Shown piece by piece: positions 10,798 through 18,709 of a DNA stretch of 53,919 nucleotides (positions are counted from its first letter, which is position 1; each line of letters begins with the position of its first letter). Below the pieces are notes generated by a model, which saw nothing but the letters and a program-made list of their open reading frames with translations, was not told the DNA's origin and did not search any database. The translations under genes and the position numbers were made by a program. The stretch spans positions 1 through 53,919 of the forward strand of contig JAWXCH010000189.1 in NCBI GenBank assembly GCA_034440595.1, written 5' to 3'. The stretch comes from Planctomycetota bacterium. Its GTDB lineage: Bacteria; Planctomycetota; Planctomycetia; Pirellulales; JALHPA01.

Positions 10798-12390
10798 CTA
10801 CCGGGCTAGAACCGCGCCGGGGCGATTGGATGTTGCTCCTTCTGGAGTAACGACGAGTTGTCCATTGACGAAGACATAGTCAATTCCGGTCGGGAAGCGA
10901 TGCGGGTCACTAAAAGTAGATTGATCGCTAATTTCCGCGGGGTCGAATACCACGATGTCTGCTTTTTTACCGCGAGCAATCACCCCCCGATCTTTTAACC
11001 CGAGTCTGGCGGCAGGTGCACCGCTCATCTTCCGAACAGCAGCTTCCAACGACAGCGCGCCTAACTCTCGTACATACCGACCGAGTACCCGGGGAAAAGT
11101 GCCATAGTACCGTGGGTGCGGCTTTGTCTGAAGCGACTGACCACGAGGCGAAATCGCAGCGCCGTCCGAGCCAATCATGCTGAGGGGATGGGAGAGAAAG
11201 AATTGGACATCCGCCTCATCTCGGTTAAACATCACAACACTGACGTCGTTTTGCTGCGACTCGATCAAGTGAAGAAAACAGTCGATAGGCTCGACCTGCA
11301 AGGCATCGGCCACTTCAGCAATTGTTTGTCCGACAAATCTATGGTAGGCCGTTTCCCGTACGTGAGCCAACTGGATGCGATCCCACTGCCACGGAATTCC
11401 ATTAAACCAGCCCTCACACGCAGCGGCTCGGATGCGTGCGCGCTCGATTGGATTGCGCAATCGGTTCAACAACATCTCCGTCCCGTCGGACAAAGCAAAA
11501 TCGGGTAACAGCTGGTCGCACTTTGTTGCTCCCGCGGTATACGGGTATACGTCATAAAGCACATCCACGCCTGCAGAACGGGCCTGCTCCATCATCTCCA
11601 CAATCTTCTTTGATTGGCCGAAGTAGCGACTGTCAATAATTGTTTGATGGCTGATCTGGACGGGTATTTCAGCTCGGCGTCCGATCTGGATGGCTTCTTC
11701 AACAGCCTTAAAGTGATAACCGGCCCACAAGCGGCTGTGCGTTGCATAGAAGCCGCCTTTAGTCGCTACGACTCGCGAAATCTCTATCAACTCGTCGGTA
11801 CGCGCATAAGAACTCGGTGCTAAGGTTAAACCCGTGCTCACTCCGAAAGCACCCTGGTCCATGGCCTGTGCGGCTAGATTCCCCATCCGGTTTAACTCGC
11901 TCGCGGTTGGCGCGCGATTCTCCGCTTCCATGGCAGCAATCCGGATTGAGCCATGCCCTACCAAAGGCACCACATTCACCGCGACGCCAATCTCTTCCAC
12001 GCAGCGGCGAAAACCTTCAAGATCGCTCCAATGCCAATCCGCAGTGCATTGTCCCTGCGTCAGACATGGTGTCATAAACTCTTTGACAGCGGGAGTAACT
12101 GGGTATGGCGAGTACGAACAATTCCCTACAACCTCCGTCGTAATTCCTTGGCGCACTCGACTTGCTGCCTCGGGATAGGCCAGTAGGGTGAGGTCAGAGT
12201 GAGTATGAATGTCGATGAATCCAGGTGATACGATCTTGCTTGAGGCGTCGATTACTTGCTTCGCACCGGCCGAAGGCATTTTACCAACAGCTGCGATCGA
12301 ATCGCCCACAATGCCAACATCTTCTTGCCGGCGAATATCGCCGGTTCCATCGACCAGCGTACCACCCAAAATCAAAATGTCGAATTTCAT
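10798..12390 (-). CDS. N-acyl-D-amino-acid deacylase (D-aminoacylase) family amidohydrolase
   Basis: MKFDILILGGTLVDGTG...GFIDIHTHSD (HxH metal motif) and DIVVFDP near the C-terminus. Length is 530 aa, typical of the family. Confidence 0.85.
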   Translation of the reverse strand: MKFDILILGGTLVDGTGDIRRQEDVGIVGDSIAAVGKMPSAGAKQVIDASSKIVSPGFIDIHTHSDLTLLAYPEAASRVRQGITTEVVGNCSYSPYPVTPAVKEFMTPCLTQGQCTADWHWSDLEGFRRCVEEIGVAVNVVPLVGHGSIRIAAMEAENRAPTASELNRMGNLAAQAMDQGAFGVSTGLTLAPSSYARTDELIEISRVVATKGGFYATHSRLWAGYHFKAVEEAIQIGRRAEIPVQISHQTIIDSRYFGQSKKIVEMMEQARSAGVDVLYDVYPYTAGATKCDQLLPDFALSDGTEMLLNRLRNPIERARIRAAACEGWFNGIPWQWDRIQLAHVRETAYHRFVGQTIAEVADALQVEPIDCFLHLIESQQNDVSVVMFNRDEADVQFFLSHPLSMIGSDGAAISPRGQSLQTKPHPRYYGTFPRVLGRYVRELGALSLEAAVRKMSGAPAARLGLKDRGVIARGKKADIVVFDPAEISDQSTFSDPHRFPTGIDYVFVNGQLVVTPEGATSNRPGAVLAR

Positions 12391-12498
12391 AGTAATTATC
12401 GTGATAGCTGCAATTTATCGTTGTTCGAGTACGCTGGGAATTTCAAAATGCCGAACGTTCCAATGTAGCAATGTTGGAGGATACACCTCAATCGACGG

Positions 12499-13290
12499 TT
12501 AGGTCGTTTTTTCTGATTGAGGCCCTCGGCGTGTCCACCAAGGCAGCGAAAAGCCGCCATCGATGAGCAGCGAACTACCTGTGATGTAATCACTGGCGGG
12601 GTCACACAGAAACACGACGCCGCGAGCAATTTCGTCGGGCCGCGCCAATCGACCCCAAACCAGTTTTGCTTCCGCTTTTGCAAGTTCTTCGCCGCCGGTC
12701 AAATTGCGCTCACCTGGGGTGTCGGTGCAACCTGGATAAACCAGATTGACTCGGATTCGATGTATTGCGAGTTCTAGTGCGGCAGTTTTGGCCATTTGAT
12801 CCAGGGCGGCTTTTGCCATGTTATACGCCATCGAATCCGCGACTGGAACAAAAGCGTGCGGCGAGCTAATGCCGACAATGGCACCACCTTGGCCTTTCCT
12901 AATCATATTCCGGGCCGCGGCGCGAAACACGTGAAAGGCCCCCCACATCGTCACATCGACAGTACGATGGAATCGCTCCAAATCCGCTTCGCAAAAGGCC
13001 GCCCGATCACTGTAGGCGGCGTTGGCCACGGCTATGTCAACGCTTCCCAGCTCTAGTTCGACATTGGCGATCATGGCCTCCACTGCGGCTAGATCCGCGA
13101 CGTCACCCTGACACAGCAATGCCCGACGGCCAGCCTGAACCACCAGTTGGGCAACGTGCTCGGCCTCCTCGGTATGCGTGTTAAAGTTGATCGCTACATC
13201 TGCGCCCGCCTGCGCTAAGGAACTGGCGATCGCTCGGCCGATGCCGCGGCTGGCGCCGGAAACAAACGCAACTTTGCCGGTCAAATTCAT
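12499..13290 (-). CDS. Short-chain dehydrogenase/reductase (FabG-like)
   Basis: GKVAFVSGASRGIGRAIA cofactor motif and YNMAK catalytic motif. Length is 263 aa. Confidence 0.9.
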   Translation of the reverse strand: MNLTGKVAFVSGASRGIGRAIASSLAQAGADVAINFNTHTEEAEHVAQLVVQAGRRALLCQGDVADLAAVEAMIANVELELGSVDIAVANAAYSDRAAFCEADLERFHRTVDVTMWGAFHVFRAAARNMIRKGQGGAIVGISSPHAFVPVADSMAYNMAKAALDQMAKTAALELAIHRIRVNLVYPGCTDTPGERNLTGGEELAKAEAKLVWGRLARPDEIARGVVFLCDPASDYITGSSLLIDGGFSLPWWTRRGPQSEKTT

Positions 13291-17161: not shown

Positions 17162-17278
17162 GATTGTGTATATGCCTAATGCAGTGTGAGCAAGACTCTT
17201 GCAAGCATTACTTCATTCTGTTCGGGTGAGTGCGTGGTGATTCATCGGTAAGTCGACGCCGCCACGCATCTCAAACTG

Positions 17279-18709
17279 TTACTTGCTCGCAATTTGAAAC
17301 GCGTACAACGTGGCATTCTGCAAATGAAATCGCAATCGAACGATCTGGCCAGTAAGCGACGACAGGTCGGCTGAATCTTTCCACTTGACCGATAGTCGGA
17401 TATCATCCTTCTGGACAATTGGCTTCGCCTCGGTCTGGGTGAACCCAGCCAACGGCTTACCGTCACGGTCTAATACTTCGACCAGACATCGGCCGCCCTG
17501 ACAGTCGACATTGATCAAGAGGTCGGCCCCGTCAAGTTTAAATGGCCGTGTCGTCACAGCGCCCGGTTCGGCCTTCGCCTGCAACCCTACGAAACGGTCC
17601 AAGGGCAAGGTCGCGAGACCAATCGCGCGGTCTTTTTCGGGCAGAAAGCTTCCCTCGCCGTGGCGCTCGTTGCCGCCAACGTAATACAGCCAGTGCTTAT
17701 TATCATGGGTTGCGATCTGTGAACTGGGGAAAAGAATGTCCTTGTCAAATGCGCTATCTCCCCCCCGGGGGATAAGTGGTTGTCCGGAGTTGATCCACTG
17801 CAAATCCCATTTGTCGCCATCGCGGCTGGTGCATATGTAATAGTTCATCACGTCCCGCTCATGGCGTCTGACGTGGTCCGTCTTTTCGCCTTCGCTAAAG
17901 TCGCCAGGATACTCGTAGACTGATGCAATTCCAAAATGTACGCCTTCATAAATCCAATCAGTCAGGGCATACACTTGCCGGCGCTTCGGGTCGTCGAGTT
18001 TCCAACTACGAATCAACTTCCAATTTGTTGGATTCGTTTTCACATCGCTGTTGGTCATGCTTCGGGATCCGCGAATTTCGCCCGGCCCCCCGCCCGTACC
18101 AAAATCGGTGCGTGTGAACAGCCGGTAAGTCTTAGCAGCTTCATCCCAAAGTATTTGGTTGTAAGTGTCCGGCGCGCGTCCCGTAACTGCTTTGCCATTG
18201 TTGTAGAGCTGCCAATGGATACCATCCTCCGAATAGGCCAGCCCCGCGCCCACATTATCGGCGTCAAAAGCCGCTTTGTAGCGATGGCGAGGATCGCTTT
18301 CGTGCTCGTCGATCGTCACCGAGTACGTCGGACCTGGAATGCCGGTGACATCGACCGGCTCGCTGAATTTCAGACCGTCTCGCGATTCGGAGTAGGCAAA
18401 ACCTATCTGGCCGGGTTTAGTAAACCACATTCTAAACCGGTCGTTGTCGAACACGACTGTGCCATAAAACCAGCGGTCAGTGACGATCGGTTTCCCGTTG
18501 TTAGCTTTGGTGACGTGTCCTAACACGCGCTCTACGTTGGATGTGTCGGCAACCGCAAGATCGTCAACCAGCAACTGCTTTTGCAAGCCAATATTGGCAA
18601 GTTTTTCTTTGTCGGCCGCTAAGGTTGGGAGGGCTGTGCAACCTAAAATTACTATCGTAAATAGCCGACGGCAGATAAAAGTCTCATTGAAACTCAAGTG
18701 GATAGGCAT
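17279..18709 (-). CDS. Secreted beta-propeller + beta-sandwich glycosidase-like protein (paralogue A1, family unassigned)
   Basis: Signal peptide (RRLFTIVILGCTALPTLAADK). Asp-box-like blades (SEDGIHW, SRDGDKW), [10 protein letters not shown], and C-terminal VRLRFHLQNATLYAFQI. Roughly two-thirds identical by eye to aa 242-681 of the gene at 21503-23842. Confidence 0.75.
   Translation of the reverse strand: MPIHLSFNETFICRRLFTIVILGCTALPTLAADKEKLANIGLQKQLLVDDLAVADTSNVERVLGHVTKANNGKPIVTDRWFYGTVVFDNDRFRMWFTKPGQIGFAYSESRDGLKFSEPVDVTGIPGPTYSVTIDEHESDPRHRYKAAFDADNVGAGLAYSEDGIHWQLYNNGKAVTGRAPDTYNQILWDEAAKTYRLFTRTDFGTGGGPGEIRGSRSMTNSDVKTNPTNWKLIRSWKLDDPKRRQVYALTDWIYEGVHFGIASVYEYPGDFSEGEKTDHVRRHERDVMNYYICTSRDGDKWDLQWINSGQPLIPRGGDSAFDKDILFPSSQIATHDNKHWLYYVGGNERHGEGSFLPEKDRAIGLATLPLDRFVGLQAKAEPGAVTTRPFKLDGADLLINVDCQGGRCLVEVLDRDGKPLAGFTQTEAKPIVQKDDIRLSVKWKDSADLSSLTGQIVRLRFHLQNATLYAFQIASK

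Follow-up and report, generated by a model that had tools for sequence, protein, structure and literature searches.

Complex glycans are broken down in large part by bacteria of the phyla Planctomycetota and Verrucomicrobiota, many of whose enzymes are still annotated as hypothetical. Block A, the subject of this analysis, is a run of seven minus-strand genes from a Planctomycetota bacterium of the order Pirellulales (assembly GCA_034440595.1, contig JAWXCH010000189.1); the window analyzed is the whole stretch of 53,919 nucleotides (nt) that holds it. The block encodes a secreted β-propeller, a lyase of the dihydrodipicolinate synthase/N-acetylneuraminate lyase (DHDPS/NAL) superfamily, two Fe(II)/2-oxoglutarate (2OG) oxygenases (PhyH1 and PhyH2), a Gfo/Idh/MocA oxidoreductase (Gfo), a short-chain dehydrogenase/reductase (SDR), and a D-aminoacylase-fold amidohydrolase, hereafter the deacylase (Table 1). 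Among the closest described systems, oxidative chitin catabolism processes N-acetyl-glucosaminate by means of OngB, OngC, and OngD (PMC9537276, PMC12017989). In the use of N-acetylneuraminic acid (Neu5Ac), YhcH, which gives its name to the family also known as DUF386, is an anomerase that serves the lyase NanA (PMC8141875). Six blades are the rule for the sialidases of glycoside hydrolase (GH) families GH33, GH34, GH83, and GH58, while the Dha-hydrolase of GH143 is a five-bladed propeller that acts on a sialic-acid analogue (PMC6811678).

The window has in common with the Ong system a D-aminoacylase-fold deacetylase, a fold-type III pyridoxal phosphate (PLP) deaminase, RidA, and an SSS transporter, and a keto-deoxy-aldonate would be the expected product. 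Unlike the Ong genes, however, those of the window are dispersed rather than gathered in a single ongB-ongC-ongD-kdgK cluster, aldolases stand in place of KdgK, no lytic polysaccharide monooxygenase (LPMO) or OngA context was seen here, and oxidation would be NAD-dependent, by way of Gfo or the SDR. The L-rhamnose/L-fucose (Lra-type), Weimberg/Dahms, and galactarate/glucarate routes are matched in their SDR and Gfo dehydrogenases, lactonase-type Amidohydro_2 proteins, HpcH- and DHDPS-type aldolases or dehydratases, aldehyde dehydrogenase (ALDH), ACS-type transporter of the major facilitator superfamily (MFS) and, in orthologous loci, MR_MLE enzymes. In contrast to these non-phosphorylative sugar-acid routes, the window has neither an MR_MLE nor an ALDH gene, the MR_MLE genes of the genome being on other contigs only, and two PhyH oxygenases together with a de-N-acylase are found in none of those pathways.

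Block A is read here, with moderate confidence, as the cytoplasmic core of a lineage-specific island for the oxidative, non-phosphorylative breakdown of an acidic or amino sugar derived from a glycan or glycoconjugate. Comparison of gene content suggests that the conserved core of propeller, lyase, PhyH2, Gfo, and SDR is part of a gene set that also includes the MFS transporter and block C of the window. In other phyla, this gene set appears in what look like glycoconjugate-degrading loci, some of them sialoglycan-like.

The neighborhoods of PhyH2 and the lyase in other genomes illustrate this recurrence. Metagenomes supplied 52 PhyH2 orthologues (62-76% identity), and a lyase at 48-51% identity to that of block A lies near eight of these, or near six when only the 29 loci above 8 kb are counted, in about five lineages. 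The corresponding figure for control flanks is 0/40, which gives a rough Fisher p of 0.004-0.007 that is indicative only, related lineages not being fully independent. The PhyH2 loci also carry Gfo (44-53% identity), HpcH, SDR, and SDR2 genes and a cassette that combines an MFS transporter, a D-Ser-dehydratase-like (DSD-like) gene, and an SDR. Talarate/galactarate-dehydratase-like MR_MLE genes are present in 14 of them and a GntR+PBP regulator in 11, with SASA esterase, GH20, propeller-family, DUF386, and BNR_2 genes in some. By type, the MR_MLE partners are acid-sugar dehydratases rather than racemases. Around members of the lyase family (71 loci in GTDB genomes), the neighbors include ALDH (17 loci), MR_MLE (13), 2-hydroxyacid dehydrogenase (9), GDSL (5), propeller (5), BNR_2 (2), and NanM-like mutarotase (2) genes. 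The propeller is found directly downstream of the lyase at L005 and L006 and directly beside it in Opitutales. Triads of Gfo, HpcH, and SDR2 occur at L011, L012, and L025, and Gfo orthologues (again 44-53% identical) stand beside lyase or PhyH2 orthologues at these three loci and at L141, L158, L164, and L166. MFS homologues at 36-46% identity recur in the same position, and both these and the MFS of the window are like the ACS-family D-galactonate transporter; the latter is the likely importer of an acidic sugar. Homologues of block C co-occur with the lyase and PhyH2 elsewhere as well. A sulfatase lies directly upstream of the lyase at L009, and a Latescibacterota locus (L002) combines PhyH, a TAL-like protein, the lyase, and Asparaginase_2. 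A co-directional operon at a metagenome locus (L145:2738-15296) contains MR_MLE, 2-Hacid_dh, DUF386, GDSL, lyase, S8-like, GH20, PhyH2, NHL/SGL lactonase-like, and unknown genes followed by two BNR_2 genes, and to judge by this content it looks like a non-canonical sialoglycan-type locus.

In the genome under study, the relevant genes are concentrated. All five propeller-family genes of the 5.4-Mb genome are on this 54-kb contig, as is its sole lyase-family gene. The five propellers (17279-18709, 21503-23842, 28165-29772, 40340-41779, and 44830-46485) each head or flank a different enzyme block. The closest orthologues of the block A propeller and deacylase are 73-88% identical, and the propeller family is present in about half of the genomes of the same order.

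The lyase matches the Pfam family DHDPS (PF00701) at 25.6 bits against a cut-off of 22.1. Pairwise alignment to solved NALs places the carboxylate motif at G53-T-A-G-E57, the catalytic Tyr at Tyr145, and the Schiff-base Lys at Lys173, and all three are invariant in 19 members of the lyase family. These features typify the whole DHDPS/NAL superfamily, not NanA in particular, and NanA, YagE/YjhH, and the 2-keto-3-deoxygluconate (KDG) aldolases have them in common with the block A lyase, as they do the TIM-barrel. What sets the lyase apart from these enzymes is an invariant motif of its own clade (H257-M-D-G-x-Y-D-K264 in the 19 members), a C-terminal tail of about 30 residues that is disordered or of low confidence in the AlphaFold2 model, and the low scores of the single sequence, none of which exceeds 19 bits against solved proteins of the superfamily. 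The family profile places E. coli NanA (47.9 bits) and DapA (46.0 bits) at nearly the same distance, and the NanA equivalog TIGR00683 (cut-off 382 bits) did not detect the lyase, its only matches in the genome being three other DHDPS paralogues at 98-128 bits; the best NCBIfam match of the lyase is KdgD at 30 bits. The model (predicted local distance difference test, pLDDT, 86.5) is closest to YagE (Z 31.1), a keto-deoxy-sugar-acid aldolase; next, at Z 27-29, come NALs, DHDPSs, KDG aldolases, KdgD, and L-2-keto-3-deoxyarabonate (L-KDA) dehydratase. The 27 representatives of the superfamily all score Z 25-31, and the next fold drops to 14.5. The designation as an NAL-type lyase given in a preliminary description of the block is thus not borne out by either profile or structure. 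The lyase clusters with neither DapA nor LhpC, and, as far as sequence and model can tell, it is a class I (Schiff-base) pyruvate-aldolase-type enzyme in a DHDPS-superfamily clade of its own, distinct from NanA, DapA, and LhpC. Identity as a true DapA was dropped on gene context and on the equidistance of NanA and DapA. An LhpC-type deaminase was likewise set aside as the primary assignment, given a Z of 26.0 for the Δ1-pyrroline-4-hydroxy-2-carboxylate (Pyr4H2C) deaminase structure against 31.1 for YagE and no proline-racemase or ALDH gene in the block.

The propeller has no match in Pfam or NCBIfam. Homologues number more than 480, come largely from Planctomycetota and Verrucomicrobiota, and are every one annotated as hypothetical. 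Its AlphaFold2 model, built on a 33-sequence alignment (pLDDT 91.7), consists of a five-bladed β-propeller and a C-terminal β-sandwich, the latter as in GH32 and GH43, the two families that Foldseek also returned. With VIA-align, the best matches were GH130 β-mannoside phosphorylases (Z 24.4-24.7, root-mean-square deviation (rmsd) 2.5-2.6, ~252 residues aligned), with 9gph as the best structure (Z 24.7, rmsd 2.5, 252 residues), and GH130 also tops the non-redundant search. GH137 BT_0996 (Z 22.4-22.6) and the propeller of the FpGalNAc deacetylase (Z 21.7-21.8, both domains covered) rank next, and below them come GH43, GH62, GH159, GH32, and GH117, all five-bladed; the matches to GH130, GH137, GH43, GH62, GH32, and GH117 span Z 17-25. 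GH130 enzymes such as Teth514_1788 and UhgbMP and the five-bladed members of GH43, GH62, GH32, GH117, and GH137 therefore have the same propeller core. At the level of profiles, the matches are weak: among PDB sequences, the family profile picks up GH130 (E 3e-5; 9fj8, ~95 residues) and GH117 (E 5e-4), and hhalign aligns the family with GH130 over 245 columns at a probability of 16%. In this weak alignment, the family Asp D134 falls in a column of the GH130 "EDPR" motif, which is presumably catalytic. Unlike GH130, the block A propeller lacks PF04041, which has no match anywhere in the genome, its identity to GH130 is 11-18%, the family has conserved motifs of its own (e.g., N-E-R-H-G and an N-terminal LLVDD), and the protein is secreted or anchored by PEP-CTERM. 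Taken from the model, the propeller is a member of a new, uncharacterized family with a GH130/GH43-like fold, and it is putatively a glycosidase or phosphorylase-like enzyme.

The preliminary description had called this protein an Asp-box glycosidase of the sialidase type. Asp-box-like S-x-D-G-x-x-W motifs are indeed visible in it, and such motifs are shared by five-bladed glycoside hydrolases. No sialidase, GH33 included, is among the top 50 structural matches in either VIA search; neither BNR nor BNR_2 from Pfam matches the propeller, and a whole-genome search with PF13088 was also empty. A GH33-type sialidase was ruled out on its six blades against the five seen here and on the absent BNR match. 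The genomic context, in contrast, is analogous to that of GH33 and GH143, with homologues of the propeller adjoining pyruvate-lyase, NanM-like, DUF386, and esterase genes, and in some of them the propeller domain is fused to BNR_2 domains. GH143 itself is outside the top 50 structural matches, but since a sialic-acid analogue is the substrate of its five-bladed fold, it is conceivable that an ulosonic-acid glycosidase with five blades exists here too.

The two PhyH proteins are only 22% identical to each other. Both match PF05721 and have an intact HxD...H triad and 2OG-binding Arg (motifs WHQD/PHQD, VHN/AHN, and PRR), and a halogenase-type function was rejected on the Asp of HxD, which is present in both. 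Their nearest solved relatives, at 55-62 bits, include the sugar-tailoring enzymes EvdO2 and SnoK/SnoN and also PHYHD1, and several PhyH relatives are amino-acid hydroxylases. The neighborhoods described above mark PhyH2 as a conserved companion of the lyase and of sugar-acid genes, and its role is probably the hydroxylation or oxidative removal of a sugar substituent. PhyH1, by its distribution, is a local, lineage-specific addition: searches of 40 relatives and of 400 genomes from the phylum turned up no close orthologue (best match 46% identical), and no block gene occurs in the flanks of 20 distant homologues. A literature search on PhyH together with polysaccharide utilization in Planctomycetes found nothing relevant. 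Very large PhyH expansions, with 50-140 first-look candidates per genome, were seen in four genomes of the phylum (G412, G106, G194, and G398). Gfo, whose best NCBIfam matches are iolG and UDP-GlcNAc 3-dehydrogenase (both below cut-off), is a putative sugar dehydrogenase, and the SDR resembles sugar 1-dehydrogenases in sequence, its best NCBIfam matches being glucose 1-dehydrogenase and the L-rhamnose 1-dehydrogenase Lra1 (~195 bits, both below cut-off). The Gfo open reading frame (ORF), as called from its GTG start, has a 25-residue extension (MATQRLLIVGVGSIG...) before the Rossmann motif, which begins at about residue 26; the true start is probably an internal ATG, in which case the gap to PhyH2 would be wider.

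The deacylase scores 316 bits with the Alcaligenes D-aminoacylase AfDam, 271 with the N-acyl-D-Glu deacylase BbDam, and 210 with the N-acetyl-glucosaminate deacetylase PpOngB. It keeps the metal ligands H62, H64, C91, H218, and H248 and the catalytic D409, along with Tyr282 and Arg427. Two pairwise alignments made independently put Thr250 in the place of the α-carboxylate-binding Lys and Leu190 in that of the amide-polarizing Tyr. These two anchors (Lys252 and Tyr192 in AfDam numbering, where Tyr283 and Arg377 complete the set; Lys254 and Tyr194 in OngB) are strictly conserved in all three characterized groups (PMC12017989). The replacement characterizes a whole subfamily and is no accident: Thr or Ala occupies position 250 and Leu position 190 in each of the 16 orthologues at 58-88% identity, and the same holds for nearly all of the 103 homologues at 46-52% identity, many of them annotated as Chloroflexota "D-aminoacylase". 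The canonical Lys and Tyr were seen only in homologues below 45% identity. The Lys-less subfamily, a large one in which Thr or Ala takes the place of Lys and Leu or Val that of Tyr, also has near-invariant Thr189 and Asn389 and is abundant in metagenome-assembled genomes of Chloroflexota. At the positions that determine OngB specificity, Ser292, Ala193, Ala256, and Gly348 correspond to Thr289, Thr189, Ile252, and Asn389, and the position of Gln298 falls inside an insertion domain ~45 residues longer in the deacylase and is not alignable. In OngB itself, the S292T mutant has 1.3% of its activity left (PMC12017989). The enzyme is accordingly described as a putative de-N-acylase by fold and active site, with a non-canonical specificity and a substrate not inferable from known relatives. 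The flanks of 20 deacylase homologues hold one DSD-like neighbor (L200), one propeller neighbor, and otherwise no block genes.

As for the layout of the block, the seven ORFs, the gaps of about 12-124 nt, and five of the seven family calls of the preliminary description (the D-aminoacylase-like amidohydrolase, the SDR, Gfo, and both PhyH proteins) were confirmed, the last by Pfam. The gaps measure 108, 14, 58, 124, 12, and 117 nt in order from 10798 to 18709. The description had also placed the secreted propeller at the head of the block; it is indeed the only one of the seven products with a signal peptide, the other six looking cytoplasmic, but its position as the head is arguable because the same-strand run extends upstream to 24747. 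Terminator-like and promoter-like sites in the block are at or below the level of shuffled controls, and none is intergenic on the coding strand. This absence of an above-chance intergenic signal is compatible with co-transcription and is no proof of it.

Beyond the block, block C begins with the PLP enzyme, followed by Amidohydro_2 and then RidA. The PLP enzyme matches D-Thr aldolase (155 bits) and D-threo-3-hydroxyaspartate dehydratase (122 bits) and belongs to the β-hydroxy-D-amino-acid class. With these three genes, the logic of OngC and OngD is reproduced (PMC9537276). Among those ORFs of the window that reach 150 aa, no PfkB-type or KdgK-type kinase was detected.

A route can be drawn from these components. 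The analysis shows the gene content, the folds, the catalytic residues, the co-occurrence, and the concentration of the families in the genome, and from these we infer the substrate, the reaction order, the PhyH roles, and co-transcription. Outside the cell, the propellers, two of which are in the operon of the surface module, would release a sugar acid or ulosonic-acid-like unit, and the ACS-type MFS would import the acid. The lyase, forming a Schiff base through Lys173, would then split a 2-keto-3-deoxy (ulosonic) acid into pyruvate and an aldose or aldehyde, after which Gfo and the SDR would oxidize the sugar by way of a lactone to an aldonate in NAD-dependent steps. An N-acyl group at C2 would be removed by the Lys-less deacylase, after which elimination of the amine by the distal PLP enzyme and RidA would leave a keto-deoxy acid. 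For the 2-hydroxy acid, this stage would fall in other genomes to an MR_MLE acid-sugar dehydratase. The HpcH aldolase would make the final cleavage. The absence of a kinase from the proposed route is what makes it oxidative and non-phosphorylative. The preliminary description had offered two alternatives, the catabolism of a nonulosonic-acid-like sugar with an oxidative tailoring step and the deacetylation of an N-acetyl-aminoaldonate feeding the PLP/RidA step. The first lost its sialidase and NAL calls but gained the DUF386/YhcH, GDSL/SASA, GH20, NanM-like, and BNR_2 genes near lyase and PhyH2 orthologues and the adjacency of propeller and lyase in Opitutales. The second is supported by the three Ong enzyme types in the window and is weakened by the lost anchors of the deacylase and the distance between the genes. 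The two are not mutually exclusive and may be two halves of one pathway.

A more ambitious version of this route, which merges the two alternatives, is also possible, although we regard it as doubtful. In this version, the P0001 family would be a new five-bladed GH family that releases ulosonic or nonulosonic acids, and the island an undescribed oxidative, kinase-free pathway of the sialate type that bypasses NanK, NanE, NagA, and NagB. The lyase would yield pyruvate and an N-acyl-hexosamine, which Gfo or the SDR together with a lactonase would convert to an N-acyl-aminoaldonate; the Lys-less deacylase, the fold-type III PLP enzyme acting as an eliminase, and RidA would lead on to a keto-deoxy-aldonate for cleavage by the HpcH aldolase. 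Removal or modification of a substituent would fall to the PhyH oxygenase linked to the lyase. Block A ties together four widespread uncharacterized groups, namely the secreted propellers, a deep DHDPS/NAL clade, the Lys-less deacylases, and the lyase-linked PhyH orthogroup, and within one kinase-free sugar-acid route it assigns each of these a function that can be tested. Should the substrate be an ulosonic or amino sugar, the propellers would form a new family of glycoside hydrolases, the island would stand as an alternative to the canonical Nan/Nag pathway, and the recently found Ong-type handling of an amino sugar acid as a D-amino acid would extend beyond chitin and Gammaproteobacteria.

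Several observations weigh against the favored reading of block A as the core of a sugar-acid island. The seven-gene arrangement is absent from every other genome or contig examined; as a seven-gene unit, the block is, by this comparison, specific to its lineage and not conserved. Neither PhyH1 nor the deacylase has a recurrent link to the other block genes. The deacylase is missing the Lys and Tyr anchors of every characterized relative, which renders the de-N-acylation of an N-acetyl-aminoaldonate uncertain, and it is 34-38 kb away from the PLP enzyme and RidA. A search for a shared operator-like motif in 20 intergenic regions of the island gave a best score of 26.3 bits, and shuffled sequences reached 30.2. 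In Chloroflexota, the neighbors of the lyase family are mostly ALDH and aminotransferase genes, and a dehydratase or deaminase role would fit there too. The window is also rich in amino-acid enzymes, with soxBDAG, DAO, hydantoinase A and B, racemase, and M19 dipeptidase genes.

These enzymes, of which there are two of the DAO type, lead to the rival that survives best, in which the genes serve the metabolism of D- or N-acyl amino acids, or a hydroxyproline-type pathway, unlinked to the propeller; the lyase would be an LhpC-like deaminase or KdgD-like dehydratase and the PhyH proteins amino-acid hydroxylases, as several of their relatives are. The PLP enzyme would fit such a scheme, as would KdgD as the best NCBIfam match of the lyase, the ALDH genes at its 17 loci, and the DAO or ALDH neighbors at L001, L004, L010, and L017. 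Carbohydrate genes nevertheless dominate the contexts (GH20, BNR_2, esterases, sulfatase, lactonase-like, and propeller genes), the MR_MLE partners belong to the acid-sugar type, the deaminase structure is the poorer match to the lyase, the block lacks ALDH and proline-racemase genes, and the adjacency of lyase and propeller recurs. We therefore consider amino-acid metabolism improbable as an account of the block.

Improbable to a greater degree is an Ong-type pathway for N-acetyl-glucosaminate from oxidized chitin, with the deacylase as an OngB orthologue feeding an OngC-like PLP enzyme and RidA. The 210-bit match to PpOngB, the presence of the types of OngC, OngD, and OngIT in the window as a fold-type III PLP enzyme, RidA, and an SSS transporter (PMC9537276), and the DSD-like neighbor of one deacylase homologue all speak for it. 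The deacylase is nonetheless closer to AfDam than to OngB and differs from the latter at Ser292 (Thr289), Lys254 (Thr250), and Tyr194 (Leu190; PMC12017989), no KdgK-type kinase was seen among window ORFs of at least 150 aa, the genes are spread over more than 34 kb, and the deacylase is no recurrent partner of the module.

There is also only a small likelihood that block A is a chance juxtaposition of independent accessory genes, brought together in an island of recent assembly that encodes no single pathway. The seven-gene order was found nowhere else, PhyH1 and the deacylase lack recurrent partners, a search of seven genomes of the same family found no propeller-family gene, and the 23.7-kb contig that carries the closest propeller homologue from the same order (G025) is devoid of other block genes. 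Against this, the genes are co-directional with short gaps and no above-chance intergenic terminators, and four of the seven families (propeller, lyase, PhyH2, and Gfo) recur together with SDR-type genes in other phyla.

Canonical or near-canonical use of Neu5Ac, with the propeller as sialidase, the lyase as NanA, and Gfo as NanY/YjhC, is very improbable, since the Asp-box-like motifs, the superfamily-wide catalytic residues of the lyase, the BNR_2 fusions, and the DUF386/YhcH, GDSL/SASA, NanM-like, and BNR_2 genes near lyase and PhyH2 orthologues (PMC8141875, PMC7315737) are set against a five-bladed propeller with GH130, GH137, and GH43 as its top matches, a lyase that TIGR00683 misses and other DHDPS paralogues of the genome far outscore, and a genome, 91.5% complete, in which no NanA equivalog, NanE, AGE epimerase, or BNR_2 was detected.

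Table 1. Positions of block A and of other features of the window.
Feature	Position	Strand	Details
D-aminoacylase-fold amidohydrolase (deacylase)	10798-12390	minus	530 aa; Pfam Amidohydro_3
Classical SDR	12499-13290	minus	263 aa; Pfam adh_short_C2 E 6e-58
Gfo/Idh/MocA NAD(P) oxidoreductase (Gfo)	13305-14393	minus	362 aa, GTG start; three Gfo/Idh/MocA Pfam domains
PhyH2, Fe(II)/2OG oxygenase	14452-15267	minus	271 aa; Pfam PhyH E 1e-27
PhyH1, Fe(II)/2OG oxygenase	15392-16174	minus	260 aa; Pfam PhyH E 3e-31
Divergent DHDPS/NAL-superfamily lyase	16187-17161	minus	324 aa, GTG start; Pfam DHDPS 25.6 bits
Secreted five-bladed propeller P0001	17279-18709	minus	476 aa; no Pfam match
Upstream surface module	18823-24747	minus	LamG, unknown 186-aa protein, DUF1559 pseudopilin-like, carbohydrate-binding module (CBM)-like-propeller-PEP-CTERM, PEP-CTERM protein (Pfam)
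Second propeller paralogue P0021, CBM-like + PEP-CTERM fusion	21503-23842	minus	56% identity to P0001; family match 21800-23143
Divergent ACS-family MFS transporter	25213-26469	plus	Pfam MFS_1; TIGR00893 129.5 bits, below cut-off
GntR+PBP regulator	43503-44597		same architecture as the regulator in PhyH2-orthologue loci
Block C	46526-52112	plus	fold-type III PLP enzyme, Amidohydro_2, RidA, HpcH/GarL-like aldolase, SDR, Amidohydro_2
Ong-analogous genes	deacylase 10798; PLP enzyme 46526; RidA 48666; SSS transporter 36420		

The presence of DUF1559, PSCyt/PSD1, and PEP-CTERM would fit a Planctomycetota/PVC-type organism. In the surface module, the 3' end of the ORF for the CBM-propeller-PEP-CTERM fusion overlaps the DUF1559 ORF by 89 nt (21503-21591) when the longest ORFs are called, and one start or end in this overlap may be mis-called. 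At 5812-10775, genes convergent with the end of block A encode a complete sarcosine-oxidase-like set of the heterotetrameric kind, made up of a DAO-type β subunit, a gap with room for a small δ subunit, a 969-aa α subunit with a GcvT domain, and a 185-aa γ candidate. At 30395-35072, hydantoinase/oxoprolinase A and B genes enclose an Asp/Glu/hydantoin racemase gene and are preceded by a GntR/FCD regulator and a propeller paralogue.

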